A stretch of 64,000 nucleotides of DNA from Dictyostelium discoideum (GCA_000004695.1 CM000150.2:4544001-4608000); one strand, 5' to 3'. Counted from the stretch's first letter, positions 7,679-56,454 are shown. Numbers and translations: made by a program. Notes: generated by a model from the letters alone, not told the origin.

Positions 7679-7713
7679 TTAATCTAGTTTTCAAATGCCT
7701 TAAAAAGGATCTG

Positions 7714-7786
7714 TGCTCGATGCAGGGATCGAACCTGCGACCGTGGCGTTATTAGCACCACGCTCTGCCGACTGAGCTAATCGAGC
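7714..7786 (-). tRNA. tRNA-Ile (anticodon AAT/AAU), 73 nt, no encoded CCA
   Basis: The reverse complement GCTCGATTAGCTCAGTCGGCAGAGCGTGGTGCTAATAACGCCACGGTCGCAGGTTCGATCCCTGCATCGAGCA folds as a cloverleaf. It has a 7-bp acceptor stem GCTCGAT/ATCGAGC, a D arm GCTC/GAGC, an anticodon stem TGGTG/CGCCA with loop CTAATAA, and a T arm GCAGG-TTCGATC-CCTGC. Confidence 0.9.
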
Positions 7787-18381: not shown

Positions 18382-18414
18382 TTAATATCGTTTCCTTTAA
18401 TTAAAAAGGATGTG

Positions 18415-18487
18415 TGCTCGATGCAGGGATCGAACCTGCGACCGTGGCGTTATTAGCACCACGCTCTGCCGACTGAGCTAATCGAGC
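18415..18487 (-). tRNA. tRNA-Ile (AAT), second copy
   Basis: Identical over its 73 nt to the gene at 7714..7786. The immediate 5' flank (atccgt.gaaaaaaaaatta) and the ex-B-containing 3' flank are also conserved. Confidence 0.9.
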
Positions 18488-26907: not shown

Positions 26908-29900
26908 TTAGAATAAACCAGAAACTTTTTTCTTTTCAGTTTTTTTCCAAGCTGGTAAAGCATCCCATTCAGCTCTACTACCAAGATGTTTTTCAAAATC
27001 TTCATCACTAAGATACATTTCTAAAACTGAACGATCAATTTCAGGAGGTGTATTCTTTTCAATTAATTTTTCAAATGGTAAAACTTGATAATATTTCTTT
27101 AGTAGATTAACAGCATTCTTTGGTGATGCACCATCATCAAGTTCATCAGCACCATCAGCAGTATTATTTGAAGAACCATTGCTGTTGTTGTTGTTGTTGT
27201 TGCTGTTGTTAAGTCTTAAAGAATCCCAACAATGGAAATAACAAGTGAAAGAAAGTGGTTCATCACCTTGAGTAATGAATAAAACATCATTTTCAGTTCT
27301 AGAATCAGCTAAATATTTTACATAATCAATTGCAATTTCCATACCTCTCTTTTTTTCTTTTTCTTGTGCTCTTAAACCTGACCAAACGAAAACATTCTTT
27401 CTATTATCCAATAGATAGACTTTACTTGGAGTTAAATCATATTGACTGAAACGATAGATTTCATCAGCTCTAATAATGGTACCAGTATTTACGATTGCAA
27501 ATAATTTAATTTGATTTTCCCAATCAGTTGGTACATTTTGATAAACATAATCAAAGTTTGCATATTTACCATTTCCACCAATTAATTTCCAAAATTCGTC
27601 AGGTTCTGAACCTTCTTTAATGACTTTAATGATTGGATTAGTTTTTGATTTTGAAATACTATTTGAAAGTGAAGCTAATTTTGATGATTCCTCTTTCAAT
27701 TGTTTATTTGAACCTTTAGATTCCCAAATAAAAGTTTGATTTGTTGAACAATTGGTAATGATGAAACAATCTCTACTATTTAAACAAGTTGAAGAAAGTT
27801 TACTGGTTTGTGAAGCAGTGATTGCATTTGATTTTTTACCAAAAACATGATACATTCTAGTGGTATTATTATTGAATTGGTAAGTGGTTCTATCACCTTT
27901 ATGAACAACCATTTTACCATTGAAAATCATATTGAAATGATTGGTTTCTCTACCTTGTCTTTCAGGATCTTGAGAACATTCACCACGAGCACTAGTTTCA
28001 ATATAAAGATCTTTTGAGAGTAATGAAGATGAACCAACGTCTTGACGAGATGCATCAGCACCTTGCCAATAGTAAATTGCATATTTGAGTGCATTCCATT
28101 TGGTGTAGGTATATCTAATCAAATAACAACAACCACTAAAGAAATGACCATACTCTTCCTTTGGTAAAGGATAGGATTTACAATTTTCAATATACCAAAT
28201 CTCATACTCACCACTACCATCACTTTTGAGTACTTCTTCAGCTCTTTCAATTTCAACCATTTCTCTAACTTGGAATTGATTCATCTTTGCAGGTGATTTC
28301 TTTTCATAGGGAATTGAAACATCAAATACTCTCTTCTTACCAAAACCCATTCTTTGTAGGGAAACTTCATGTGAAAGATCTGGCCAATCAAAGAATTTCT
28401 CTCTAAATAATACAGTTTCACCACCTTCTGATAATACAACTGATTCAACCCATGATTGTCTATGTTGATTATTCTTTAAACGTTCTTGACATTTCTTATG
28501 GAATTGTTCCTTTAATGATTGATCGGAATTTCTACCTGACCATTCATAGAACTCACTAACAGTATCCAATACATAGAAACCATCAGACTCTAATAATTCC
28601 ATTGATAATGATTTAGTATCAATATGAATTAATTGATCTTTATCAGTTAAATACTTCAATAGTGTGAATGATGATGCCCAATTTAATTCCGCTTCTAAAT
28701 CATCACCACCATCTGGATTAATAGTAGATTTATGTGATGAACCTCCACCAATACGTTTATAAAATAATTCATTTTCATCACCTTCATCCAATTTAATTAT
28801 TGTAGCATGACCACCTCTTTCGTGAGATTTAATGATTTCTGCAATTGCAACTGCTTTGGCTTTCTTATTGGCAGTTGATTTTGAGCCATACCAAGTGAAA
28901 ATGGTAGAATGTGAATTACTATCAACTGATTCACCACCAACATTTGAATTTTCAATACCACAATCTAAAACGAATGCATCCATTTTATTCAATGAATTTA
29001 TTGAGATTTCAACCTCTTTGGTTAAAATTCTCTTTTTACCTTTACAATGAACTAATCTTGCTCTTAGGCCTGAATAAGTATCAATACTCTTTTTATGATT
29101 TAAAAATTTATTTGGATCTTGTTTCAATGTTGATGTGACTGATACAGATTGTGATCTACCTCTAACGAAATTTGGTGCTGCAGGTTCATCCTTTAAAACA
29201 TTTGATAAAAGTTTATTATTTTCAATTTCCATTTTCTTTTTTTGTGCTTCCATTGCCAATGATGCCATTGACCCCATTATTCCACCGACTGCACCAGGTG
29301 GTAATACAATTTTCTTTTTAGTAGTTGGAGATGATTCATTATTTTTATTACTTTCTAATGCTTTTGATAATAATGATGGTTGTTGATCACTACCCACATC
29401 ATCATCACCACCACCATTTGAAGTTGAAGTTGAACCTGGTGCTTTATGACTTTTACTTGGTGCTTGTCTACCTTTCATTTTAACTCTATCTTTAGTTAAT
29501 GATGTTAAAGTTGATGTTGATCCATCACTACTACTATTATCTTCAGTAACTTGTACTGGTTTCTTTTTATTTTCTAATTGACTTTGAAGTTGTTTTTCAA
29601 TTGATAATTTAAATTGATCAGTTATTGTGGATGATTTTGTTTCTTTTTCAATAGATTTTGAAATTTTCTCTCTTTCTAAACGATCTCTTTCTTCTTTTTC
29701 TGCAAATTCTCTTTCTTGTTTTAATTTTAATTCTTTTTCTTTTTGTTCTTTTTCTAATTTTAATTTAAATTCTTTTTCTTTTTTATCTTTTTCTTCTTTT
29801 TCTTTTGTAACTTTATCAGCCAATTCTTTATCTTTTTTCTCTTTTTCTAATTTATCAGCCAATTCTTTCTCTTTTCTTTCTTTTTCTTCTTTTTCTTTTG

Positions 29901-31494
29901 CAAGTTTATCAGCCAATTCTTTATCTTGTTTCTCTTTTTCTAATTTATCAGCCAATTCTTTCTCTTTTCTTTGTTTTTCTTCTTTTTCTTTTTGTTCCTT
30001 TTCAAGCTTATCAGCCAATTCTTTATCTTGTTTCTCTTTTTCTAATTTATCTGCTAATTCTTTCTCTTTTTTCTCTTTCTCTAATTTATCAGTTAATTCT
30101 TTTTCAAGTTTTTCTTTTTCAAGCTTTTCTGCCAATTCTTTTTCTTCCAATTCTTTTTTCTCTTTCTCTAAACGTTCTTTTTCAAGTTTTTCTGTTTCTG
30201 CTGCTGCTGCTGCTGCTGCTAATTCTTTATCTTTTCTTTCTTTTTCTTCTTTTTCTTGTTTCTCTTTTTCTTCTTTTTCTTCTTTTTCTTCTTTTTCTTT
30301 TTGTTCTTTTGCAAGTTTATCAGCCAATTCTTTTTCTTGTTTTTCTTTTTCTAATTTTTCAAGTGATTCTTTTTCTTGTTTTTCTTTTTCCAATTTATCA
30401 GCCAATTCTTTTTCTTGTTTTTCTTTTTCTAATTTATCAGCCAATTCTTTCTCTTGACGTTCTTTTTCTAATTTATCAGCCAATTCTTTCTCTTCTTTTT
30501 CCTTTTGTTCTTTTGCAAGTTTATCAGCCAATTCTTTCTCTTGACGTTCTTTTTCTTCTTTTTCCTTTTGTTCTTTTTCAAGTTTATCAGCCAATTCTTT
30601 CTCTTTCTCTAATTTCTCAGCCAACTCTTTTTCTTGAGATTCTTTTTCAAGTTTATCAGCCAATTCTTTTTCTTCTTTATCTTTTTTTTCTTTATCTAAA
30701 CGTTCCTTTTCAAGTTTATCAGCCAATTCTTTTTCTTCTTTTTCTTTTTTCTCCTTTTCAAGTTTATCAGCCAACTCTTTCTCTTGACGTTCTTTCTCTA
30801 ATTTATCAGCCAATTCTTTTTCTTCTTTTTCTTTTTTATCAGTTAATTCTTTTTCTATTCTCTCTTTTTCTTCTTTTTCTAATTTTTCATTTTCTTCTTG
30901 TTTTAATTTTTCAATTTTTTCAGAATCTTTTTTATCTAATAAATCTTGAAGTTTTCTTTGTTCTTCTTCTTGTTGTAATCTTCTTTCTTCTTTTCTTTTT
31001 TCACGTTCTTCTCTAATTTTTTGTTGTTCCAATTCTAATTTTTTAGCTTCCTCTTCCAATTCTTTTCTTCTTTTCTCTCTTTCTTCTTTGGCTGAAATTG
31101 CTTGTGCTGATAATAATGAAGTTGATGAATCACCACCACTATTCTCAGAGATTGAATAAGATGATGTTGATGGTGATAATGCTATACTACTACTACCACT
31201 TGTGGGAGTTTTTGGCGATGTTATTCTATTTGCTTTATCAGACTCTAATTTCTCCATCTCTTCCTTTAGAATCTTTTCATCTTCCTCACGTTTCTTTCTT
31301 CTCTCTTCACGTTCTTTTTGTTTTTTTAATCTTTCTTCTTCATCTTTTTTCTCTTGTTCCGCTGCTAATCTTTGTTGTTCTTCACGTGCTTTCTTTCTTT
31401 CTTCATTTCTTTTCTCTCTTTCTTGTGCTTCCTTTTCTAATTCTAAACTTTGTTGTTTTAAATCCTCTAATCTTTTTTTTCTTTCTTCATCCAT
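26908..31494 (-). CDS. Villin/gelsolin-family protein with a C-terminal villin headpiece and a very long E/K-rich repeat (coiled-coil) N-terminal half; 1528 aa
   Basis: The C-terminus ...LSDEDFEKHLGSRAEWDALPAWKKTEKKKVSGLF is a canonical villin headpiece. Upstream gelsolin-type segments carry the FWKLIGG, LLDNRKNVFVWSGL and LNSRDCFII motifs. The N-terminal about 700 aa are dominated by repeats of KELADKLEKE(K/R)QEKE encoded by a 30-nt DNA periodicity at about 29700-30900, with a poly-Ala (gct)7 insertion. Confidence 0.8.
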   Translation of the reverse strand: MDEERKKRLEDLKQQSLELEKEAQEREKRNEERKKAREEQQRLAAEQEKKDEEERLKKQKEREERRKKREEDEKILKEEMEKLESDKANRITSPKTPTSGSSSIALSPSTSSYSISENSGGDSSTSLLSAQAISAKEEREKRRKELEEEAKKLELEQQKIREEREKRKEERRLQQEEEQRKLQDLLDKKDSEKIEKLKQEENEKLEKEEKERIEKELTDKKEKEEKELADKLEKERQEKELADKLEKEKKEKEEKELADKLEKERLDKEKKDKEEKELADKLEKESQEKELAEKLEKEKELADKLEKEQKEKEEKERQEKELADKLAKEQKEKEEKELADKLEKERQEKELADKLEKEKQEKELADKLEKEKQEKESLEKLEKEKQEKELADKLAKEQKEKEEKEEKEEKEKQEKEEKERKDKELAAAAAAAETEKLEKERLEKEKKELEEKELAEKLEKEKLEKELTDKLEKEKKEKELADKLEKEKQDKELADKLEKEQKEKEEKQRKEKELADKLEKEKQDKELADKLAKEKEEKERKEKELADKLEKEKKDKELADKVTKEKEEKDKKEKEFKLKLEKEQKEKELKLKQEREFAEKEERDRLEREKISKSIEKETKSSTITDQFKLSIEKQLQSQLENKKKPVQVTEDNSSSDGSTSTLTSLTKDRVKMKGRQAPSKSHKAPGSTSTSNGGGDDDVGSDQQPSLLSKALESNKNNESSPTTKKKIVLPPGAVGGIMGSMASLAMEAQKKKMEIENNKLLSNVLKDEPAAPNFVRGRSQSVSVTSTLKQDPNKFLNHKKSIDTYSGLRARLVHCKGKKRILTKEVEISINSLNKMDAFVLDCGIENSNVGGESVDSNSHSTIFTWYGSKSTANKKAKAVAIAEIIKSHERGGHATIIKLDEGDENELFYKRIGGGSSHKSTINPDGGDDLEAELNWASSFTLLKYLTDKDQLIHIDTKSLSMELLESDGFYVLDTVSEFYEWSGRNSDQSLKEQFHKKCQERLKNNQHRQSWVESVVLSEGGETVLFREKFFDWPDLSHEVSLQRMGFGKKRVFDVSIPYEKKSPAKMNQFQVREMVEIERAEEVLKSDGSGEYEIWYIENCKSYPLPKEEYGHFFSGCCYLIRYTYTKWNALKYAIYYWQGADASRQDVGSSSLLSKDLYIETSARGECSQDPERQGRETNHFNMIFNGKMVVHKGDRTTYQFNNNTTRMYHVFGKKSNAITASQTSKLSSTCLNSRDCFIITNCSTNQTFIWESKGSNKQLKEESSKLASLSNSISKSKTNPIIKVIKEGSEPDEFWKLIGGNGKYANFDYVYQNVPTDWENQIKLFAIVNTGTIIRADEIYRFSQYDLTPSKVYLLDNRKNVFVWSGLRAQEKEKKRGMEIAIDYVKYLADSRTENDVLFITQGDEPLSFTCYFHCWDSLRLNNSNNNNNNSNGSSNNTADGADELDDGASPKNAVNLLKKYYQVLPFEKLIEKNTPPEIDRSVLEMYLSDEDFEKHLGSRAEWDALPAWKKTEKKKVSGLF

Positions 31495-36976: not shown

Positions 36977-37401
36977 AATTATTTCTATTACTTTCACACT
37001 TTAATAGTAAATTTATATTTTCAAAACAGTAAACAGTTTCCATTAAAATCGTGGAGACCTAATATTTAAATCAAAATAGGAAAATATTATTTTTTTTGTT
37101 AAAGGTATGAAATTCTTTTAAAAAGTTAATAAAATATTTTTTTTTTTATTTTTTTTATTTTTTTTTTTGGTACAGAAAATATACAGAATAAATATTAATT
37201 TCCATTTTTTTTAAATTACGATTGGATATTTTGGTATTTTTTTTTGAAAATAAAAAAGAAAAAAAAATCAGAAAAATATCTTAAAAAAAATAAAAAATCT
37301 AAAATAATGAAGTGGAATGTTTTGAAAATTTTATAATTATTTTTTATTTCATTTTTTTTTTTTTTTTTTTCATTTATTTTTTTTTTTTTTTAAGATATAG
37401 A

Positions 37402-39474
37402 ATGGAAATAAATTTATTGAATTGGTTATTATTAAAAGGAAAAGAAGATTGGATACTTGAATATGTAAAGAGTTTATCAGATAATAATTTACATATAACT
37501 TTAAAATCACTTTATTTTCATTGTATATCTGAAATTGACTTAATTTCCTTTGATAAAAAGTATAGAAATTTACTATTAAAAGATATTGAACCAATTTATT
37601 TAAAATATAATAAAAATTCTCAAGAATTTATATATGGATGTGAAAATTGTTTAATTAAAAATAAAATTAAAGAAATAAATCAAATAAAAGAAAATCAAAA
37701 TTTATTTATCAAACCATTAATTACTTGTTTAGAAATAATAAAAAATAATAAAAGATTATTAATAAAAAAAGAAAATATAAATTTAATATTTAATCAACAG
37801 AGTGGTGAATTATTTTTAAATCAAATTTGGAGAAGTGATAGTATAAAGAATGAAATTATTAATTATTTATCAATTTTTAAATATCACAGATTTAAAATGA
37901 CATTTACATCAATTAAACAAATTCAAAAATATAAATTTAAAGATTATTTAGATCATGTAGAATTATCATTATCAAATTCAAGTTCAAATATAGATGGTGA
38001 ATCTATAAATGATTATTTAGAATTTCAATTACCAAATTCAATTAGAAAATTACAAATTAATTGTAATTATATTGATAATAATAATATTCTACAAACTAAT
38101 GATTACATTGAATATATTAGACCATCATCAATACCACCATCAGTTACATATTTAGATTTTAGTAGTAGTAGTATTGGTAGTTGCACAAATTATCATGATA
38201 ACCAAATAATTTTAAATAATAAACAAACATTACCAACAACAACTACACATTTAAATTATGATACCAATTTTATAAATCAAAGAAATTTTTTTCAGGAATC
38301 AATTACAATTTTAAAATTAGGAAATACTCAATTCACTTATTCAAATGAAAAAATTAAAATTGGTGTTTTACCATCACAATTGATTGAATTAGATCTAGGA
38401 GGTTATTATAATGAAATTGAAGAAAATGTATTACCACCAACTTTAAAATCGTTAACATTATGTCAAAGTTATAATAAAACTATTAAATTAGGTTGTTTAC
38501 CAAGTTCTTTAGAATATCTTTCATTTCATGGCGATTCTAATGCAATTATAAAAGATCATTCAGACACAAAAAAAGGTTGGTGGTCATTTTGGTCATACTT
38601 TTCAAACCAATTAAAAGAATCGCCACATCCACAACCAGTTTTAATTGTAGGTTCATTACCAATTAGTTTAAAAACTTTAAAATTATCATCACATCAATCT
38701 TTTTTAGATATTTTAATCTCAGAAGTTGTATCAATTTCTCATAAGTCTCTTACAAAGTTATCAATTATTCAAGAAAGTAAAATGTTTGATTATAAAACAA
38801 AAAAAGAATTATCAGATAGTGATGCCATTTTAAAATTTAATAATTGGAAACATTTAAATTTTAAATTACCACCGAGTGTAAAAATAATTAAATTAAACAC
38901 AAATAGATACTTTCAATTCTTAGAAAATGATTCATTACCATTCACTCATTTCAAAACAAATTCAACATGGGCAATTAAAACACTACCAAACACATTAAAA
39001 TCAATTTCATTGAAATCTCAATTCGATCCCTTCACAAATAAAAATCGAATAACAAATTATCCAGACTCTTTAGAAACATTAGTCATTGGTTCCATTGCTG
39101 ATATCCCATCGATTGATTCCATACCTAGTTCTTTGATTAGACTAGATCTCCTTTATGATTCTTCTTTTATTCCAAATTTTAATCATAATTTGTTAAAGTG
39201 CTCAAAATTAGTAACATTGAAAATACTATCTTTACCATCAACTTTTACAAAAGAATTAAATATTGATTTAGAATTCCCAAATTTAGAAATTTTATTTGTT
39301 GGTTCTTCAAATCCAAAAATTATAATATCACAACCACTAAAATCTTTAAAATTAAAAAAAATTATTATTAAAAATAATAATTATAATTTTATAGATAATA
39401 ATCTTCAATTTTATTCTCTTTTTAAAGTTTATAATAGTGATATAAAAAAAAATTTTTATAAACTAATATTGTAA
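37402..39474 (+). CDS. FNIP-repeat protein, paralog 1 (690 aa)
   Basis: Begins MEINLLNWLLLKGKEDWILEYVKSLSDNNLHITLKSL. It then has many approximately 22-aa FNIP-type repeats (LPNSIRKLQIN, IPPSVTYLDFS, LPSQLIELDLGGYYNEIEENVLPPTLKSLTLCQSYNKTIKLGCLPSSLEYLSFHG...). The track ORF starts earlier (37312) in a poly-T-derived F-rich stretch that is unlikely to be coding. Confidence 0.75.
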   Translation: MEINLLNWLLLKGKEDWILEYVKSLSDNNLHITLKSLYFHCISEIDLISFDKKYRNLLLKDIEPIYLKYNKNSQEFIYGCENCLIKNKIKEINQIKENQNLFIKPLITCLEIIKNNKRLLIKKENINLIFNQQSGELFLNQIWRSDSIKNEIINYLSIFKYHRFKMTFTSIKQIQKYKFKDYLDHVELSLSNSSSNIDGESINDYLEFQLPNSIRKLQINCNYIDNNNILQTNDYIEYIRPSSIPPSVTYLDFSSSSIGSCTNYHDNQIILNNKQTLPTTTTHLNYDTNFINQRNFFQESITILKLGNTQFTYSNEKIKIGVLPSQLIELDLGGYYNEIEENVLPPTLKSLTLCQSYNKTIKLGCLPSSLEYLSFHGDSNAIIKDHSDTKKGWWSFWSYFSNQLKESPHPQPVLIVGSLPISLKTLKLSSHQSFLDILISEVVSISHKSLTKLSIIQESKMFDYKTKKELSDSDAILKFNNWKHLNFKLPPSVKIIKLNTNRYFQFLENDSLPFTHFKTNSTWAIKTLPNTLKSISLKSQFDPFTNKNRITNYPDSLETLVIGSIADIPSIDSIPSSLIRLDLLYDSSFIPNFNHNLLKCSKLVTLKILSLPSTFTKELNIDLEFPNLEILFVGSSNPKIIISQPLKSLKLKKIIIKNNNYNFIDNNLQFYSLFKVYNSDIKKNFYKLIL

Positions 39475-43613: not shown

Positions 43614-46316
<2,703 letters not shown>

Positions 46317-46926: not shown

Positions 46927-48864
46927 ATGGAAAGAAATTTATTAAATTGGTTATTTTTAAAAGGAAAAATTGATGGTGATTGGATTTTAGAATATGTAAA
47001 GAATTTATCAGAAAATGGTTTACATATATCATTAAAATCACTTTATTTATATTGTAAATTTCAAATTAATTTTATTGAGGAAGAAAAATTTGTAAATTCT
47101 TATTTAATTAAAGAATTGGAACAAATTAACTCATTAAAAGATAATCATGAATTTATATATAGTATTCATGATAATTTTATTAAAAATAAAATCAAAGAAT
47201 TAGAAAAATGTTTTAATAATAAAAAAGAAATTGAAAATTTTACAAAACAACTATTAATTTGTTTGGATATAATTAGAAATAATAAAAAATTATTAATTAA
47301 AAATGAAAATTTTAATTATTTTAATTTAAAAAATAGTGAACAAAGTGGTGAAACTTTTTTAAACAATATCTGGAGAAATGGTTTAATTAAAGAGAAAATA
47401 ATTTATTATTTATCAATTTTTAAAAATAATAGATTTAAAAAGAAATTTACATCAATTAAAGAATTGGAACAATATAAATTTAAAGATTTTTTAGATTATG
47501 TTGAATTATCACTACCAAATAATAATAATAATAACAATCAAGATAGTGAATTTATAAATGATTATTTAGAGAATCAATTACCATTGTCAATTAGAAAATT
47601 ACAAATTAATAGTAATTTTTATAGTGGTGGTTATTATTATCAAGGTCAACCATATACAAGATATATTAAACCTTTATCAATATCACCATCTGTAACTTAT
47701 TTAGATTTTAGTTGCCATGATGAAATAAATTCTCAAATTAATATGAAATATGTTGATTTTAATTTACCAATTTTAGAAAATTATTTTTTTTTAAAAAATA
47801 ATAAAGATCAACAACAACAACAACAAGTTACATTTAAAATATTACATTTTAATACAAATTTTGATTCAAAAATTAATATTGGTGTTATTCCAGAAGGTGT
47901 TGAAACTATTGATTATACTACAGGTTGTAATCCAAGAGATGGTTTACTAAAATCTGAACAATTTCCAAAATCTTTAAAAACTTTAAATTTCAAAAGATTA
48001 AATTATGAACCACTTAAAAAAGATGATTTATATTGTAAAAATCAAACATTACCAACAACAATTACAAATTTATACTATGATACAAATACTATAATTGATG
48101 TAAATTTCTTTCCTCAATCAATTACAATTTTAAAATTGGGTAATACAAATTTAAGTTATGGTGGTTCAATGGATATATTAAAAGCTGGTGTTTTACCATC
48201 GAAATTGATTGAATTGGATCTTGGTGGTTATTTTAATGAAATTGAGGAAAATGTATTACCATCAACTTTAAAATCGTTAACATTGTGTGATGGATATATT
48301 AAAACTATTAAACCAAGATGTTTACCAAACTCATTGGAATATCTTTCATTTCACGGTGACGATAGTGTTGTACCAAAAGTAAATGATGGAATGCAATATT
48401 TAACATTGAAATCAGTTTTCAAAAAGAATCAACCATGTTTAATTAAAGGTTCATTACCAATTGGTTTAAAAACTTTAAAGCTATCTTCTCGTCAATCATT
48501 TTTAGATATATTAATACCAGATGTAATAACAAAATCACATTGCTCATTAACTAAACTATCAATTATTCAACATAAAATCTATGATTATCAAGATCAACTT
48601 GAATTATCAGAAGAAGGAACTACCTTAAAAATTAATAATTGGAAAAATTTAAAATTTAAATTACCACCAAATGTTAAAATAATTAAATACTTTTCAAATA
48701 GATATTTTCAATTTTTAGATAATTCCTTACCATTAACTCATTTTAAAACTCACTCTAAAACTGAATTTCTTTATAATTCTGATCCAAATTATTCAATATC
48801 TTTAAAAATGTGTAAAGATCATGTATTATCTCATACTAGTTATAAAAATAATAAAATAAAATAA
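46927..48864 (+). CDS. FNIP-repeat protein, paralog 3 (645 aa)
   Basis: Begins MERNLLNWLFLKGKIDGDWILEYVKNLSENGLHISLKSL. It has the same repeat architecture (LPSKLIELDLGGYFNEIEENVLPSTLKSLTLCDGYIKTIKPRCLPNSLEYLSFHGDD). Confidence 0.8.
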   Translation: MERNLLNWLFLKGKIDGDWILEYVKNLSENGLHISLKSLYLYCKFQINFIEEEKFVNSYLIKELEQINSLKDNHEFIYSIHDNFIKNKIKELEKCFNNKKEIENFTKQLLICLDIIRNNKKLLIKNENFNYFNLKNSEQSGETFLNNIWRNGLIKEKIIYYLSIFKNNRFKKKFTSIKELEQYKFKDFLDYVELSLPNNNNNNNQDSEFINDYLENQLPLSIRKLQINSNFYSGGYYYQGQPYTRYIKPLSISPSVTYLDFSCHDEINSQINMKYVDFNLPILENYFFLKNNKDQQQQQQVTFKILHFNTNFDSKINIGVIPEGVETIDYTTGCNPRDGLLKSEQFPKSLKTLNFKRLNYEPLKKDDLYCKNQTLPTTITNLYYDTNTIIDVNFFPQSITILKLGNTNLSYGGSMDILKAGVLPSKLIELDLGGYFNEIEENVLPSTLKSLTLCDGYIKTIKPRCLPNSLEYLSFHGDDSVVPKVNDGMQYLTLKSVFKKNQPCLIKGSLPIGLKTLKLSSRQSFLDILIPDVITKSHCSLTKLSIIQHKIYDYQDQLELSEEGTTLKINNWKNLKFKLPPNVKIIKYFSNRYFQFLDNSLPLTHFKTHSKTEFLYNSDPNYSISLKMCKDHVLSHTSYKNNKIK

Positions 48865-49024
48865 ATTAAGTAATTAAAAAAAAAAAAGAATCAATTTAAT
48901 ATAATTTAATTCGATAAAACTAAAATAGATAATTTACAAAAAAAGAAAAGAGTAGATATATATACATATAGTTTGGAACACAAATTTTAAAATAATAGAT
49001 AATTTGGATGTTTTTTATTTATTT

Positions 49025-49070
<46 letters not shown>

Positions 49071-49104
49071 CTTTACTTGGTCAAAAGAAATCTACTAGTT
49101 TAAT

Positions 49105-49521
49105 TTATTTTGTGTAAACGAGATCAGTGATTGAGAAAATTGCTGGTTCTGAACCTTTAGTAATATAACCGAAAGTGAATGTGGTGTTAAATGCTAAACC
49201 GATTTGTGAAATGTATTGTGGGAAATGTAATTTTGCATGTTGTAAATCTTTTGGAATTGCTTCTACAAAGTCTAATTTCCAAAGATCAGATCTTCTTTGA
49301 ATGTTAAAATTGGATTCTGGTATTATAGTTGCATCATAAACCATTGATGTTCCAGTATTGGTTACAGTAGCAACATAGATAGAATAAGATATATCTTGAT
49401 CAGTCCATGTTGAATTTTTCATTTGAGAAATTGTTAATTGCATTGCTTGATTTTCACCATAAACTGCAAATGAAAACATTGCAATCATAAAAGTAATTAA
49501 TAAAATATGTTTGATCATCAT
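49105..49521 (-). CDS. Small secreted protein, tandem copy 1 (138 aa; signal peptide plus a mature domain of about 117 aa)
   Basis: MMIKHILLITFMIAMFSFAVYG|ENQAMQLTISQMKNSTWTDQDISYSIYVATVTNTGTSMVYDATIIPESNFNIQRRSDLWKLDFVEAIPKDLQHAKLHFPQYISQIGLAFNTTFTFGYITKGSEPAIFSITDLVYTK. The mature domain is Thr/Ser/aromatic-rich and predicted beta-rich; family unknown. Confidence 0.8.
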   Translation of the reverse strand: MMIKHILLITFMIAMFSFAVYGENQAMQLTISQMKNSTWTDQDISYSIYVATVTNTGTSMVYDATIIPESNFNIQRRSDLWKLDFVEAIPKDLQHAKLHFPQYISQIGLAFNTTFTFGYITKGSEPAIFSITDLVYTK

Positions 49522-50431
49522 TTTTAATAATTTTCTTTTTTTTATTTTTTTTTATTTAAGATCTTTAATTAAATTTTAATTTTTAATGTTTTTAAGAAAT
49601 AAGTAATTTTACTTTGTTTTTTTTTTTTAATGATTTAGAGAAAAAAAAAAATTCTTAAATAGTTTTTTTTTTTTTTTTTTTTTAAATAATAAATAAAAAA
49701 ATTCTTATATTATTATTTACAAGTTTTAAAATAATTAATGTAAAATATATAAAATATTTATAAAAATAGTATGCATAATGGCAGTATAATGATATAATAC
49801 CACTTAAAAAAGTATAAATTTTTAAAAAAAAAATGAAAATGTGGTAAAAAGTGGTAAAAATGATTAATATGATTAAATTAATGATTAAAAAAAAAAAATT
49901 TGGTAAAAACTAAATTGTAATGTGAAAATTGGTGACCTATTGTTTTTAATAATAATTAATTGTATTTTTTTTTTTTTTTTTTTTTTTGTATTAAATCATT
50001 TTTTATTACTTATTTGTTTTAAATGAGTTAAAAAAAAAAAAAAAAAAATAGAATAAAATATAAAAGGATTTTTAAAAAAAAAAACTGAATAATTAAATTT
50101 GAAAAAAAAAAAAAAAACGAACCCGATCCAACTAGTGAGAACAAGTTTTTGTAAGAAATTCAAATTTATTTTGAATATATTTTTTTTTTTTTTTTTTTAT
50201 TTTGGCTTACCCACAAACAATTACATTATATAAAATTTTATTAGATAAATAAAAAAAAAAAAAAAAATAAGAAATGAATAGATATTATCTAAACATTGAT
50301 TTAAGGCTGATATGGATAATTTCAAAAACTCATTTTTGGTATTAAAATAGATAATATGGACATTACAAATTTATTTGGTTTTTTTTTTTTTTTTTTTTTT
50401 TACTTTGTCAAAAGAAATCTACTGTTTCAAT

Positions 50432-50848
50432 TTATTTTGTGTAAACGAGATCAGTGATTGAGAAAATTGCTGGTTCTGAACCTTTAGTAATATAACCGAA
50501 AGTGAATGTGGTGTTAAATGCTAAACCGATTTGTGAAATGTATTGTGGGAAATGTAATTTTGCATGTTGTAAATCTTTTGGAATTGCTTCTACAAAGTCT
50601 AATTTCCATAGATCAGATCTTCTTTGAATGTTGAAATTGGATTCTGGTATTATAGTTGCATCATAAACCATTGATGTTCCAGTATTGATTACAGTAGCAA
50701 CATAGATAGAATAAGATATATCTTGATCAGTCCATGTGGAATTTTTCATTTGAGAAATTGTTAATTGCATTGCTTGATTCTCACCATAAACTGCGAATGA
50801 AAACATTGCAATCATAAAAGTAATTAATAAAATATGTTTGATCATCAT
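50432..50848 (-). CDS. Small secreted protein, tandem copy 2 (T54I relative to copy 1)
   Basis: One amino-acid difference from copy 1. Confidence 0.8.
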   Translation of the reverse strand: MMIKHILLITFMIAMFSFAVYGENQAMQLTISQMKNSTWTDQDISYSIYVATVINTGTSMVYDATIIPESNFNIQRRSDLWKLDFVEAIPKDLQHAKLHFPQYISQIGLAFNTTFTFGYITKGSEPAIFSITDLVYTK

Positions 50849-50988
50849 TTTTAGTATAATTATTTTTTTTTTTTTATTTAAGATCTTTAATTAAAATTTG
50901 ATTTTTAATGTTTTTAAGAAATAAGTAATTTTACTTTGTTTTTTTTTTTTAATGATTTAAAGAAAAAAAAAAAATTAAATAGTATTTT

Positions 50989-51040
<52 letters not shown>

Positions 51041-51362
51041 AATAAAAAAATTCTTATATTGCTATTTACAAATTTTAAAATAATAAATGCACAATAGAAA
51101 AATATTTATTAAAATGGTATGCATACTGGCAGTATAATGATATAATAATATTACTTAAAAAAGTATAAATATTTAATAAAATAAAAATGTGGTAAAAATG
51201 ATTAATATGATTAAATTAATGATAAAAAAAAAAAATTTATAAAAATTAAATTGTAAAATGAAAATATAAAAAATTGGTGACCTTTTGCTTATATTAATAA
51301 CTTATTGTATTTTTTTATTTTTGGATTAATTAATTATTTATTTGTGTAAATGAGTTAAAGCG

Positions 51363-51398
<36 letters not shown>

Positions 51399-51761
51399 TG
51401 AACATATCAAAGGATTTTAAAAAAAAAACCTGAAAATTAAATTTGAGAAATAAAAATAACTCCACCCAACCAATGAGAACAAATTTCTGTAAGAAACCCA
51501 AATTTATTTTGGATTTTTTTTTTGTGATTCAATAAACAATGAACATTTTATTTTTGTATTGCATAAAACTTTAATAGATAATTAAAAAAAAAAAAAAAAA
51601 AAAATGAATAGATATTATCTAAACATTGATTTAAGGCTGATATGGATAATTTCAAAAACTCATTTTTGGTATTAAAATAGATAATATGGACATTACAAAT
51701 TTATTTGGTTTTTTTTTTTTTTTTTTTTTTTACTTTGCCAAAAGAAATCTACTGTTTTAAT

Positions 51762-52175
51762 TTATTTTGTGTAAACGAGATCAGTGATTGAAAAAATTGC
51801 TGGTTCTGAACCTTTAGTAATGTAACCGAAAGTGAATGTGGTGTTAAATGCTAAACCGATTTGTGAAATGTATTGTGGGAAATGTAATTTTGCATGTTGT
51901 AAATCTTTTGGAATTGCTTCTACAAAGTCTAATTTCCATAGATCGGATCTTCTTTGAATGTTGAAATTGGATTCTGGTGTTATAGTTGCATCATAAACCA
52001 TTGATGTTCCAGTATTGATTACAGTAGCAACATAGATAGAATAAGATATATCTTGATCAGTCCATGTTGAATTTTTCATTTGAGAAATTGTTAATTGCAT
52101 TGCTTGATTTTCACCATAAACTGCAAATGAAAACATTACAATCATAAAAGTAATTAATAAAATATGTTTGATCAT
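51762..52175 (-). CDS. Small secreted protein, tandem copy 3 (137 aa)
   Basis: Has a single initiator Met (one cat lost) and the substitutions A13V and I66T. Confidence 0.8.
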   Translation of the reverse strand: MIKHILLITFMIVMFSFAVYGENQAMQLTISQMKNSTWTDQDISYSIYVATVINTGTSMVYDATITPESNFNIQRRSDLWKLDFVEAIPKDLQHAKLHFPQYISQIGLAFNTTFTFGYITKGSEPAIFSITDLVYTK

Positions 52176-52963
52176 TTTAAGTATAATTTGTTTTTTATTT
52201 AAGATCTTTAATTAAATATTAATTTTTAATGTTTTTAAGAAATAAGTAATTTTACTTTGTTTTTTTTTTAATGATTTAAAGAAAAAAAAAAATCTCTTAA
52301 ATAGGATTTTTTTTTTTTTTTTTTTTTTTTTAAATAATAAATAGAAAAATTCTTATATTATTATTTACAAATTTTAAAATTATAAATATACAATAAAAAT
52401 TTTAATAGAAATAGTATGCATAATGGCAGTATAATGATATTATATAATGATATTTTATAATACCACTTAAAAAAGTATAAAATTTTTATAAAATAAAAAT
52501 GTTGTAAAAAGTGGTAAAAATGATTAATATGACTAAAAAAAAAAAATTTATAAAAATTAAATTGTAAAGTGAAAACTTTAAAATGGGTAACCTATCGTTT
52601 ATAATAATAATTAATTGTATTTTTTTTTTTTTTTTTTTTTTTAATTAATTATTAATTTGTTTAAATGAGTGAAAAAAATAAAAAAAAAAAAAAAAAAATA
52701 GGTGAACAAATCTGTTTTTAAAAAAAAACCTGAAAATTAAATTTGAAAAATAAAAATAAGAAATCCAATTTTTTTTTTTTGAATATCCAAAAACAAAGAC
52801 ACATTTTATCTTGGTATTGTATAAAACTTTAATAGATAATTTTAAAAAAAAAAAAAAAATATGAATAGATATTATCTAAACATTGATTTAAGGCTTATAT
52901 GGATAATTTCAAAAACTCATTTTTGGTATTAAAATAGATAATATAGACGTTACAAATTTATTT

Positions 52964-53002
<39 letters not shown>

Positions 53003-53028
53003 GGCCAAAAGAAATCTACTGTTTTAAT

Positions 53029-53445
53029 TTATTTTGTGTAAACGAGATCAGTGATTGAGAAAATTGCTGGTTCTAAACCTTTAGTAATATAACCGAAAGT
53101 GAATGTGGTGTTAAATGCTAAACCGATTTGTGAAATGTATTGTGGGAAATGTAATTTTGCATGTTGTAAATCTTTTGGAATTGCTTCTACAAAGTCTAAT
53201 TTCCAAAGATCAGATCTTCTTTGAATGTTGAAATTGGATTCTGGTGTTATAGTTGCATCATAAACCATTGATGTTCCAGTATTGGTTACAGTAGCAACAT
53301 AGATAGAATAAGATATATCTTGATCAGTCCATGTTGAATTTTTCATTTGAGAAATTGTTAATTGCATTGCTTGATTTTCACCGTATACTGCGAATGAAAA
53401 CATTGCAATCATAAAAGTAATTAATAAAATATTTTTGATCATCAT
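53029..53445 (-). CDS. Small secreted protein, tandem copy 4
   Basis: Differs from copy 1 at H5N, I66T and S124L. Confidence 0.8.
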   Translation of the reverse strand: MMIKNILLITFMIAMFSFAVYGENQAMQLTISQMKNSTWTDQDISYSIYVATVTNTGTSMVYDATITPESNFNIQRRSDLWKLDFVEAIPKDLQHAKLHFPQYISQIGLAFNTTFTFGYITKGLEPAIFSITDLVYTK

Positions 53446-54953
53446 TTTTGATAGGTTTTTTTTTAGATTTTTTATTAAAGTTTAATTGTTTTTAAGAAAT
53501 AAGTAATTTTACTTTGTTTTTTTTTTTTTAATGATTTAAAGAAAAAAAAAAATTTCTTAAATAGTTATTTTTTTTTTTTTTTTTTTTTATAAATAATTTC
53601 TTGTTATAATTATTTACAAATTTTAAAATAATTAATGTAAAATATATAAAATATTTATAGAAATAGTATATGCATGATGGCAGTATAATGATATTTAAAT
53701 AAAATTGTGGTAAAAAGTGGTAAAAATGATTAATATGATTAAAAAAAAAAAAAAAAAAAATTACCAAAAAAATTAATAAAAACTAAATTGTAGAGTGAAA
53801 AATGGGTGACATATCGTTTATAATAAAAATAAATTGCATGTTTAAATAAAATAATAATAAAAAAAGAAAATTTTGAATAAATAAAAAAGATATATAAATA
53901 TTTCAACTTTACACAAACAAATATAATATAGTTTAAAAACTAATAAATTTTTGGTGTATATATGAGAATTAACTTCTTTTTTTTTTTTTTTTTTTTTTTG
54001 TTAAAGAAATAAAACAATAATTATTTGGAAAATTCCAAAATCAATTTGGAATTTGGAAATATCAAAATATTTTAGCTATTGACTTAGAACATTACTAAAA
54101 CCAATTGAATATTTTTGGTAGTGGAAATATTAAAATAATTATATTTAATGATAATTTAATTTTTATAACCATGCACTTCCTCACAACAAAATGTATATGA
54201 ATGAATTAAAAAAAAAAAAATAAAAAAATTATTTAAAGTTGACACCAAATTGGGACATTATAGTTGGAAAAATAAAAAAGATTACGAGGTGATTCTAGCT
54301 TGCTTATTTAAAAAAAAAAAATAATAAAAAAAAAAATAAAAAATAAAAATAAAAAAAATATCTCAAGTATGCGACGTTAGAATAATGCGTGCCCCGTGAA
54401 AAAAAGAGTATTGTTTTTTCAAAAAAAAAAAATTCAAAAAAAATTAAAAATTAAAAAAAAAATTCCAAACTTAGATTCTATCTTGATAAAAATCCCTCGT
54501 AGTTGTATTTTCTTTTTTTCCCATCATTTATTTTTATTTTTTTTTATTTTTTTTTTTTTATTTTATTTTTTTTTTTTTTATTTTGCCTCTACTTTCTAAT
54601 TAGCTCTTAATAAATTTCTTTCTAAATTTCAATATTGAGCAATTGCTATGATTGAAAATATCTAATTTTTTTTCCTTTTTTTTACAACATTGTTTCACCA
54701 ACAGGCAAAATTTTTTAAAAAAGGATTAAGAAAAAAAAAAAAAAAAAAAAATTTTTACCATTAATGTTAAATAAAAAGTTTTATTTAACAAATAAATAAA
54801 AACTAAATAACATATAAATAAATAATAATAATTTAAATTCTTGTATATATATAAAATAAAATAAAATAAAATAAAATAAAATAAAATAAAATAAAATAAA
54901 ATAAATATAAAATAAAATATAAATAAAATAAATATAAAATAAATAAATATAAA

Positions 54954-56449
54954 ATGAAAATATTTAATAAATTAATATTTTTAATAATTCAATGTATATT
55001 AATAATAAGTGTAACAAATGCTCAAGTTGATTGTGGTGGTACGGATAATCCATATCCAATTTATAATGAATTACCAGTTTTAATAAATCAAACTACCTAT
55101 GGCAAATTATATAAAATTGGTCCACCTGATAATTTAATAAATATAATAGAATTATATGGTACCCCATATCAAAGAGGTTTAGCACAAGGTCAATTATTAA
55201 AATCTGAAATTAATGATATTTTTGATAACTTTTTTGGTTATATTACAGTCATGGTAAATGAATTAGTTACAAAAGTTTGTATTAATTTAATTTTATTTTT
55301 AATTTTATTTAATAAATTTAATATTGACTTTTTTTTTTTTATAATAAAAATAATAATAATAGTATGCAGATTATTTACCAAAATTTTTAGTTGATGCACT
55401 TGAAGAGGGTGGTGTTGGATTAGCATTAGATATTACAGCAGATTTAACAAAGAAATATACACCAAAATCATTTTTTGAAGAAATGCAAGGTATTGCTGAT
55501 GGAAGTGGTATTGAATATAAAACAATTTTAAGGTAATTATTATAATTATATTTATATATTTATTTATTTATTAATTATTAATTATTAATTTTTTTTTTTT
55601 TTTTTTTAAAAACAATTAGATTACATATGTTCCCAGAATTAATTAAAGCAGCTTGTTCAATGGTTGGTGCATATAATTCAGCAACACTTAATAAAGGATT
55701 ATTACAATTACGAGCATTAGATTTTGGATTTGATCCAATGAATCCATTAAGACTTCATCCAACAGTAATGATTTATCATCCAGAATCAGTTAGTGCAGGT
55801 GGTGATGGTGGTCATGAATTTGCTACATTATCATGGGCAGGATTTTTAGGTACTCTTACTGGTTATAGTCAACATGTTGGTATTTGTGAAAAATATTGGT
55901 TTGGTTATAATGGCACAAGTTCACGTGAAGGTATTCCATTCCATTTCTTATTACGTGAGATTATTCAATTTGATGAATCAATTGATGAGGCATTAAATCG
56001 TATTATTAATGCTGATAGAACTTGCTCGGTTTTCATGGGTTTAGGTAGTAATCAAACTAATACTTTTAAAGCAGTCGAATATTCTTATGAATACGTTAGA
56101 GTATTTGATGATCAAACTCCATTCCCATCCTATGTTCCAACTCCTTCTGCTCATCCAGTAATTCAAGATGTAGTTTATATTGATAAATTCGTCCAACCAA
56201 GTAATCACCAATGTTTAGCTTCAGTTCTTCAAAAATCACTTGGTTCAATTGATGTAACCTCTTTAATCAATGCTGCCGCTCAATTACAAACTGGTGATAT
56301 TCATATTGGTATCTATGATTATCAACAAAATCAAATGTATGTTAGTGTTGGTACTCAATCTGGTCCATATCCACCACCTTCAAATTTCACTATAGTTCCA
56401 GCATATGCCAGACAATTTATTCAAATTGATTTAAATTCATTTTTTAATC

Positions 56450-56454
<5 letters not shown>
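54954..56454 (+). CDS. Secreted Ntn-hydrolase, peptidase C45 (acyl-CoA:6-APA acyltransferase)-like protein. Exons 54954..55253, 55363..55532 and 55620..56454.
   Basis: Signal peptide MKIFNKLIFLIIQCILIISVTNA. Intron 1 is gtaaat...ag (phase 0) and intron 2 is gtaatt...ag (phase 2). The mature region ...IADGSGIEYKTILRLHMFPELIKAACSMVGAY...LRLHPTVMIYHPESVSAGGDGGHEFATLSWAGFLGTLTGYSQHVGI resembles the autoproteolytic G|C site and the following glycine-rich strands of C45 acyltransferases. The family call is inferred. Confidence 0.55.

Follow-up and report, generated by a model that had tools for sequence, protein, structure and literature searches.

We analysed a stretch of 64,000 nucleotides (nt) from chromosome 1 of Dictyostelium discoideum AX4 (GCA_000004695.1 CM000150.2:4544001-4608000; hereafter the window), which has ~20% G+C and homopolymer runs. 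Direct-repeat families and self-BLAST place a tandem array of four protein-coding genes approximately at positions 48927-53843 on the minus strand, each unit comprising a promoter, a coding sequence (CDS), and a 3' flank. The starts of the open reading frames (ORFs) are spaced by 1327, 1330, and 1267 bp, and both a repeat search and self-BLAST found the four units to be arranged head-to-tail. We named the copies a to d in gene orientation: copy a adjoins a gene for a product of 441 amino acids (aa), and copy d adjoins an FNIP-repeat gene. Tandem Repeats Finder, with a longest period of 500, returned AT-rich microsatellites only, the periods of the array exceeding its range.

All four ORFs are intronless and on the minus strand. 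Copy a (53029-53445; DDB_G0270294, Q55BZ6, XP_646685) encodes 138 aa and is an exact match to a database protein (P0007). Copy b (51762-52175; DDB_G0270292, Q55BZ7) encodes 137 aa from its second Met, as its first codon (52176-52178) is AAA and not ATG. Copies c (50432-50848; DDB_G0270290, Q55BZ8) and d (49105-49521; DDB_G0270288, Q55BZ9, XP_646682) encode 138 aa each and are identical to the cluster representative P0001 and to P0006, respectively. Database accessions of the four proteins run from XP_646682 to XP_646685 and from EAL72494 to EAL72497. A published proteomics table equates Q55BZ9 with DDB_G0270288 and Q55BZ6 with DDB_G0270294 (PMC12821622 supplement); we infer from gene order that DDB_G0270290 is copy c and DDB_G0270292 copy b, both IDs being present in the RNA-seq table discussed below. 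The genes, which lie on a 4,923,596-bp contig, and their domain were known already, the AX4 annotation listing a "cellulose-binding domain-containing protein" for them.

It should be noted that the AX4 reference model of copy b (Q55BZ7; P0014) is a 124-aa protein starting at M15, and that a newer annotation (P0011) has 137 aa. A start at M15 would remove the signal peptide, which the 137-aa ORF from Met2 keeps, and the start codon of DDB_G0270292 (window 51762-52178) is probably mis-annotated. The D. citrinum orthologue (L004 9959-10375) is likewise modelled as 124 aa despite a full 138-aa ORF, which is probably a mis-annotation as well.

The four proteins vary at only six residues: the signal peptide has three of them (1, 5, and 14) and the mature part the other three (54, 67, and 124), with N5 and L124 found in copy a alone. 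CDS pairs show 6-11 differences per 414 nt, and 1-4 differences per pair are nonsynonymous. Whole units are 84-95% identical and carry numerous indels (self-BLAST). A second assembly, GCA_054883475.1, aligns colinearly with 15.5 kb of the window; identity is 99.67%, and the 6 mismatches and 7 gaps are for the most part differences in homopolymer length. Because it independently carries the same four copies, the array is not an assembly artefact. The initial annotation of the window, made by a model from the sequence alone, had reported four head-to-tail units with these periods, encoding signal-peptide proteins that differ by 1-4 aa, and both statements stand. Its description of intronless minus-strand genes for 138-aa proteins fits three copies, copy b being one residue shorter, and its conserved flanks are only loosely so, because the units are 84-95% identical with many indels. 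It had named a single copy in long-read assemblies as a refutation; the second assembly shows four.

Three promoter elements recur on the minus strand in every unit, and all three are conserved out to D. firmibasis. A TATA-like box, TATTTAA, followed by a T-run and predicted to act as the core promoter, lies at 53557-53563 in copy a, and a promoter alignment places the other boxes at 52297-52303 (b), 50975-50981 (c), and 49655-49661 (d). The leader block AAAGTAAAATTACTTATTTCTT is identical in the four AX4 copies and nearly so in the outgroups; it is found at 53494-53515 (a), 52237-52258 (b), 50916-50937 (c), and 49594-49615 (d). Further upstream, the block TTTTAAAAYTTGTAAAT, a candidate cis-element kept across copies and species, is located at 53612-53628 (a), 52363-52379 (b), 51064-51080 (c), and 49715-49731 (d). 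Because each unit has all three elements, each copy is a complete transcription unit.

Protein family, predicted fold, and expression

The initial annotation could not assign the protein to a family and suspected a small beta-sandwich or carbohydrate-binding module in its mature domain. The latter idea proved correct, and the family is a named one that is already annotated for all four genes in AX4. Pfam CBM49 (PF09478) matches residues 29-121 over profile positions 1-79 of 80, with 41.6 bits for copy d and 42.8 bits for copy a, above the curated gathering cutoff of 23.4, and a precomputed PF09478 match is present on every orthologue. Each protein has one CBM49 module, without a catalytic or second domain. 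When 1.84 billion representatives were scanned with HMMER, only 14 clusters were retrieved at E <= 0.001, mostly of 120-165 aa. The named members of this subfamily are all dictyostelid: they are proteins of D. purpureum, Tieghemostelium, Polysphondylium, Synstelium, and Acytostelium, together with further paralogs from D. discoideum.

An AlphaFold2 model of copy d, built on the subfamily alignment, has a predicted local distance difference test (pLDDT) score of 89.7 overall and of >93 across the mature domain. It begins with an N-terminal helix (residues 2-22), which leads across a junction of low confidence (22-25) into an all-beta domain with the predicted topology of a CBM2-like beta-sandwich (jelly-roll), which matches CBM2-type cellulose- and chitin-binding modules. 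The same kinship has been reported for CBM49-like modules of amoebozoans (PMC11423589). In both sequence and model the N-terminus resembles a signal peptide: it has a basic residue and a hydrophobic stretch as well as a V-Y-G motif of the cleavage type. Cysteine is absent from the mature D. discoideum protein, which has two N-glycosylation sequons (N36 and N112). No match was found in sequence searches of the PDB with the single protein or with the family profile.

Residues Q33, W39, N55, W81, P101, G108, F117, and G118 are invariant in the subfamily alignment, and 14/14 sequences have an aromatic residue (Y, F, or W) at position 103. W39, W81, and the aromatic residue at 103 are kept in all 21 copies and orthologues compared. 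In Acanthamoeba Luke-2, alanine mutants showed that a three-aromatic array is required for Avicel binding and wall targeting, and CBM2 (1EXH) and plant CBM49 have this array too (PMC11423589). W39 and W81 would fit the first two positions of such an array, with Y103 as the putative third. Among the CBM49 proteins of Dictyostelium, celB, st15, staB, and both ecmC and ecmD have been reported as cellulose binders (PMC12821622).

The array proteins can be compared with several known systems. Like them, St15, StaB, EcmC/D, staD, somC, and somE combine a signal peptide with a CBM49 module and are expressed late in development in stalk or somatic cells, and they belong to families noted for extensive gene gain and loss. 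Next to these stalk and matrix proteins, the array proteins are minimal, with a single CBM49 alone (116 aa mature) and a small 14-cluster subfamily. The Luke lectins of Acanthamoeba have the same fold and are, as are the array proteins, amoebozoan, secreted, non-catalytic proteins of cellulose walls; the W35/W73 spacing of Luke-2 resembles that of W39/W81. However, a Luke lectin is built of two or three jelly-roll modules with spacers rich in Ser, and every module has one disulfide, whereas the array protein has one module and no cysteine in its mature form. It is not a Luke lectin, yet probably binds its ligand in the same way, and since it has a single module, no cross-linking is possible. 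Bacterial CBM2a modules (C. fimi Cex CBD 1EXG; C. cellulovorans EngD 3NDY) have only 13-17% sequence identity to the array protein, below what sequence searches retrieved, and are disulfide-bonded and joined to catalytic domains, neither of which applies here. The CBM49 of plant class C GH9 endoglucanases (tomato SlCel9C1, the founding member) belongs to the same Pfam family, but it is a C-terminal appendage of a cellulase, whereas the array module stands alone.

All four gene IDs are on the stalk-specific sheet of an RNA-seq study of purified cell types (PMC6198379 supplement). During development their mRNA was 0 at 0-12 h, remained silent until 16 h, reached a maximum at 20 h, and was lower by 24 h; the 20-h peaks were 61.6 for DDB_G0270294, 42.8 for DDB_G0270292, 11.3 for DDB_G0270290, and 15.3 for DDB_G0270288 (PMC6198379). 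Cup, spore, and vegetative cells had ~0-1 transcripts per million (TPM), with one spore replicate at 0.6-2.7 (PMC6198379). At the protein level, peptides of Q55BZ9 were detected in fruiting bodies only (1.59e8 and 9.9e7, similar to StaA), and those of Q55BZ6 in culminants (1.96e7 and 1.31e7), with a weak signal in fruiting bodies (PMC12821622 supplement). Neither entry was detected at the vegetative, aggregation, or mound stages (PMC12821622). The genes are thus transcribed and translated late in development (PMC6198379 and PMC12821622 supplements). The signal peptide and the stalk-enriched expression at culmination are those of a stalk-specific secreted matrix protein, with the caveat that reads multi-map among the copies.

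An in silico digest yielded one practical discriminating tryptic peptide: copy a gives GLEPAIFSITDLVYTK, and the other three copies give GSEPAIFSITDLVYTK. Because this single peptide separates copy a from the others, the Q55BZ9 entry probably stands for b, c, and d jointly. We observed that the copy a protein peaks at culmination and the b/c/d entry occurs in fruiting bodies only, with mRNA levels in the order a > b > c and d. Promoter-level divergence among the copies is possible, the assignment to paralogs being ambiguous. Roughly 30 further CBM49 proteins are expressed late. More generally, CBM49 proteins are numerous among late secreted proteins, several of them cellulose-binding (PMC12821622), and a marker-gene study found CBM49 stalk and somatic markers, in families with extensive gain and loss (PMC9117722). 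In the literature searched, the four gene IDs are present in supplementary tables and are not named in main texts.

Copy number and gene conversion across related genomes

Eight further assemblies, including two of D. discoideum (W and R) and two labelled "D. cf. discoideum" (Y and Z), supplied the syntenic region, in which the CBM49 copies lie between the 441-aa gene, itself preceded by actin and cytidylyltransferase genes, and the FNIP gene. There are four copies in AX4 and in the second AX4-type assembly, three in W and in R, two in Y and in Z, and one each in D. citrinum, D. dimigraforme, and D. firmibasis. A tblastn search of the related assemblies confirmed these copy numbers and found no additional fragments. 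The copy-number variation expected in the initial annotation is thus real: 4, 3, 3, 2, and 2 in discoideum-complex assemblies and 1 in the three sister species.

In flanking single-copy genes, divergence from AX4 is 1.6-2.7% for W/R, 2.8-3.7% for Y, 4.6-6.9% for Z, and 8-11% for D. citrinum. Diversity within D. discoideum is low, and the W/R value (L005, L007) seems high for conspecific strains; for this reason, the contrast between three and four copies may lie between divergent lineages and not within one population.

Different parts of the units have different histories. A tree of the CDS groups copies by strain: bootstrap values are 99.5% both for AX4 a-d and for Y a+b, and reach 100% for Z a+b. 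In the tree of upstream sequences, the copies of AX4, W, and R cluster by position (a-copies 100%, b-copies 74%, last copies 70%). Paralogs are more distant than positional orthologues upstream (0.108 vs 0.051) and downstream (0.187 vs 0.088), and the relation is reversed in the CDS (0.019 vs 0.037). Six sites, polarised with the outgroups, are fixed in 4/4 AX4 copies vs 6/6 W/R copies, and all lie in the CDS; three of them are third-codon positions (CDS nt 330, 333, and 393). Seven sites that separate the a-copies from all other copies are all upstream (Fisher p = 5.8e-4 vs the strain-fixed sites).

Positional grouping could arise trivially if the outer flanks lay beyond the duplicated segment. 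As a control, we mapped the unit boundaries against the single-copy species and reran the test with internal copies only. Compared with single-copy D. dimigraforme, the ancestral sequence extends in every unit for ~340-350 bp upstream and for at least 50-75 bp downstream. Between the internal copies (b vs last), all 11 position-informative sites are upstream, some at -6 to -11 from the ATG, and all six strain-informative sites are at CDS +156 to +392, a split of 6/0 vs 0/11 (Fisher p = 8e-5). The result persisted in this control.

The spacers, all read on the minus strand, also retain their positions. The a-b spacer (52179-53028; 850 bp) has an identity of 0.90 to the a-b spacer of W and 0.88 to that of R, vs 0.88 to the other AX4 spacers, and is their positional orthologue. 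The c-d spacer (49522-50431; 910 bp), with 0.90 to the b-c spacer of W, 0.94 to that of R, and 0.88 to the a-b spacer of Y, is orthologous to the last spacer of W and R and to the sole spacer of Y. The extra AX4 spacer, b-c (50849-51761; 913 bp), is a mosaic with 0.82-0.89 identity to every other spacer. Orthologous spacers of W and R are 0.96-0.98 identical, whereas paralogous ones reach just 0.82-0.88, and no AX4 spacer has a near-identical twin. Within AX4, ~120 bp 3' of the stop codon have also been homogenised (2-5% divergence). We considered whether simple unequal crossing-over between neighbouring units had produced the fourth AX4 copy as a hybrid and rejected this, as a sliding-window comparison of the spacers gave a mosaic with no clear breakpoint. 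Separately, in GCA_054859235.1 (D. cf. discoideum, two copies; L009 8554-10000), the spacer is 1447 bp long vs ~850-913 bp elsewhere; it is ~70% identical to the others with >640 gap columns and probably contains an insertion.

Among the AX4 paralogs, the synonymous divergence (dS) is 0.048-0.086 and the nonsynonymous divergence (dN) 0.003-0.012, with dN/dS of 0.05-0.21; between species, dN/dS is 0.11-0.28. The CDS is under purifying selection. In addition, the paralogous CDSs are closer to each other than to orthologues while their flanks are orthologous, and lineage-specific changes, including silent ones, are common to all copies. The array is thus old, and was built by stepwise duplication with gene conversion roughly limited to the coding region and a short 3' segment; the CDSs are nearly identical because of conversion and purifying selection, and not because of youth. 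The first duplication is younger than the split from D. citrinum but older than the divergence among the discoideum-complex lineages, and later copies were added stepwise. Conversion stops at the CDS edges, probably because the AT-rich, indel-rich spacers lack uninterrupted identity for heteroduplex formation. Globin and heat-shock gene duplicates are classical examples of concerted evolution by gene conversion. The pattern here is the same, with a converted tract that approximates the coding region and flanks that are positionally orthologous; it is a textbook mode in a new locus and nothing unusual. The literature searched yielded nothing relevant about either gene conversion or variable copy number at the locus, nor about the new assemblies of sister species.

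Other features of the window

The array is bounded on its 3' side by the FNIP-repeat gene (46927-48864, plus strand; Pfam FNIP E = 3.7e-24), which is convergent with copy d and keeps its synteny throughout the nine related loci. At the opposite end, the gene for the 441-aa product is present as two ORF pieces (54954-56454, plus strand) with a weak AAT-family match and is syntenic in all loci. It is probably dcd1A (acid ceramidase-like, DDB_G0270296), a name based on gene order in the RNA-seq table.

Three FNIP-repeat genes stand in a row on the plus strand (37312-39474, 43614-46316, and 46927-48864), with 77-81% DNA identity over several hundred bp. This trio, just upstream of the array, forms a second, older local paralog cluster. 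An (ATC)46 microsatellite (46019-46156; 94% matches) lies in-frame, for ~46 codons, within the FNIP-repeat ORF at 43614-46316 and is likely a length-polymorphic homopolymer tract. Two tRNA-Ile(AAT) genes were found on the minus strand (7713-7786 and 18414-18487). An RVT_1 reverse-transcriptase ORF (5776-7575, minus strand) ends 138 bp from the first of these and looks like a tRNA-gene-targeted retroelement typical of Dictyostelium. A 1528-aa gelsolin-repeat ORF (26908-31494, minus strand) coincides with a GC skew of -0.44 and an AT skew of -0.44 at 30-32 kb; this extreme strand asymmetry suggests a long low-complexity coding repeat, and several long opposite-strand ORFs overlap.

Outside the window, a second cluster of small stand-alone CBM49 genes (P0005, P0022, P0026, and P0028) is found on another D. 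discoideum chromosome (a 3,602,379-bp contig), with consecutive accessions (EAL61319, EAL61321, EAL61322; ACTFIR_003301 to 003303) and 31-43% identity to the array protein. Tandem duplication therefore recurs in the subfamily, there without homogenisation.

A model for the array and its significance

We propose the following account, which we consider likely as a whole. Each unit has all the parts of a complete transcription unit: a TATA-like box followed by a T-run, the conserved leader, and, without introns, the CDS of a 138-aa pre-protein made of a cleavable N-terminal signal peptide and a single CBM49 with a CBM2-like beta-sandwich. Stalk cells would switch the genes on at culmination (16-24 h) and secrete the protein, which may then bind the cellulose microfibrils of the stalk tube or of stalk-cell walls through a planar aromatic face formed by W39, W81, and probably Y103. 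As a single module, it would coat or cap microfibrils without cross-linking them, and four copies may raise output in a short expression window. In the ancestor the gene would have been single, the state still seen in D. citrinum, D. dimigraforme, and D. firmibasis. Successive tandem duplications in the discoideum complex would then have raised the number to 2, 3, and finally 4, and gene conversion has repeatedly homogenised the coding region and ~100 bp 3' of the stop codon within each genome, with AT-rich, indel-rich spacers and promoters continuing to diverge. This account combines our results on the array, family, predicted fold, copy series, conversion, and selection with published expression data and with a putative cellulose ligand, a putative role in the stalk matrix, and a putative effect of dosage.

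The initial annotation had favoured a very recent amplification, in which unequal crossing-over produced the whole set of units and the likeness of the copies reflects their youth. The small number of differences between CDS pairs (6-11/414 nt) and the variation of copy number among assemblies are in line with it. We find it very improbable, as the spacers are 12-18% diverged with no near-identical AX4 pair, and this divergence is not an assembly error since two independent AX4-type assemblies agree. Furthermore, the two spacers within W and R are 14% apart, whereas orthologous spacers of W and R differ by 2-4%; flanks group by position across strains ~2% apart in single-copy genes; and the paralog dS (0.05-0.09) is of the same order as the between-strain divergence. 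Gene conversion, which the initial annotation had offered as an alternative, was indeed involved, the CDS grouping by strain and the flanks by position. The grouping of the CDS by strain would also be expected from independent lineage-specific duplications without conversion (birth-and-death), and matrix-protein families do undergo extensive gene gain and loss (PMC9117722). However, separate births would group the flanks by strain too, whereas upstream regions and spacers group by position in AX4, W, and R (a-copies 100%; 11 shared position-informative sites) and the sole spacer of Y is nearest to the last spacer of AX4, W, and R; such a history has, in our view, hardly any chance of being right. 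That the array is an assembly artefact, or a set of unexpressed ORFs, can practically be dismissed given the same four copies in GCA_054883475.1 (99.67% identity), mRNA for all four gene IDs, and peptides that include an entry requiring the copy-a-unique peptide.

The main functional rival is a ligand other than cellulose, e.g., chitin from fungi or from prey, or else a polysaccharide of the spore coat or slime sheath, with a role in defence or some other role in the matrix. The top structural neighbours include the chitin-binding CBM2 domains ChiA74, Chi18aC, and archaeal ChBD3, chitin binding has been called possible for Luke-2 too (PMC11423589), and the protein is most abundant in the mature fruiting body. 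Such a ligand nevertheless seems unlikely, since the Pfam family was defined on crystalline-cellulose binders, several Dictyostelium members have been reported to bind cellulose, and stalk-specific expression coincides with cellulose deposition in the stalk. The favoured account of a stalk cellulose binder evolving by stepwise duplication and conversion has several points against it. Several top fold matches are chitin-binding, and not cellulose-binding, CBM2 modules, and both cellulose binding and stalk location are predicted for these four proteins. The profile alignment to 1EXG anchors one strand and is not significant (13 columns, E = 0.078), and because it covers just these columns the third aromatic residue is not assignable by homology. 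Expression in mature stalk cells is low (3-13 TPM for the four genes; PMC6198379), RNA-seq reads multi-map among the copies, and neither these reads nor most peptides are assignable to single paralogs. The fourth copy could have been gained in AX4 or, alternatively, lost from W and R. Low dN/dS under conversion is no proof that each copy is individually needed. Finally, cross-polishing of repeats in long-read assemblies could inflate CDS similarity within a genome, against which it can be argued that the Sanger AX4 reference shows the same pattern.

A further idea is that conversion keeps the protein uniform while the promoters diverge, so that the array would consist of differently timed or tuned units and the gain in dosage from one to four copies would be adaptive for the stalk; this is speculative, and we consider it rather doubtful, although the different timing of the two protein entries and the order of the mRNA levels described above hint at it.

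The significance of these findings is small, as the genes and their domain were already annotated and their stalk-specific expression was available in published supplementary tables. What is added is a record of copy numbers that run through 1, 2, 3, and 4 in the D. discoideum species complex, the probable start-codon mis-annotation of DDB_G0270292, and a clean case, in a social amoeba, of gene conversion roughly limited to the coding region. The locus could serve as a small natural system for studying the limits of conversion tracts in an extremely AT-rich genome.

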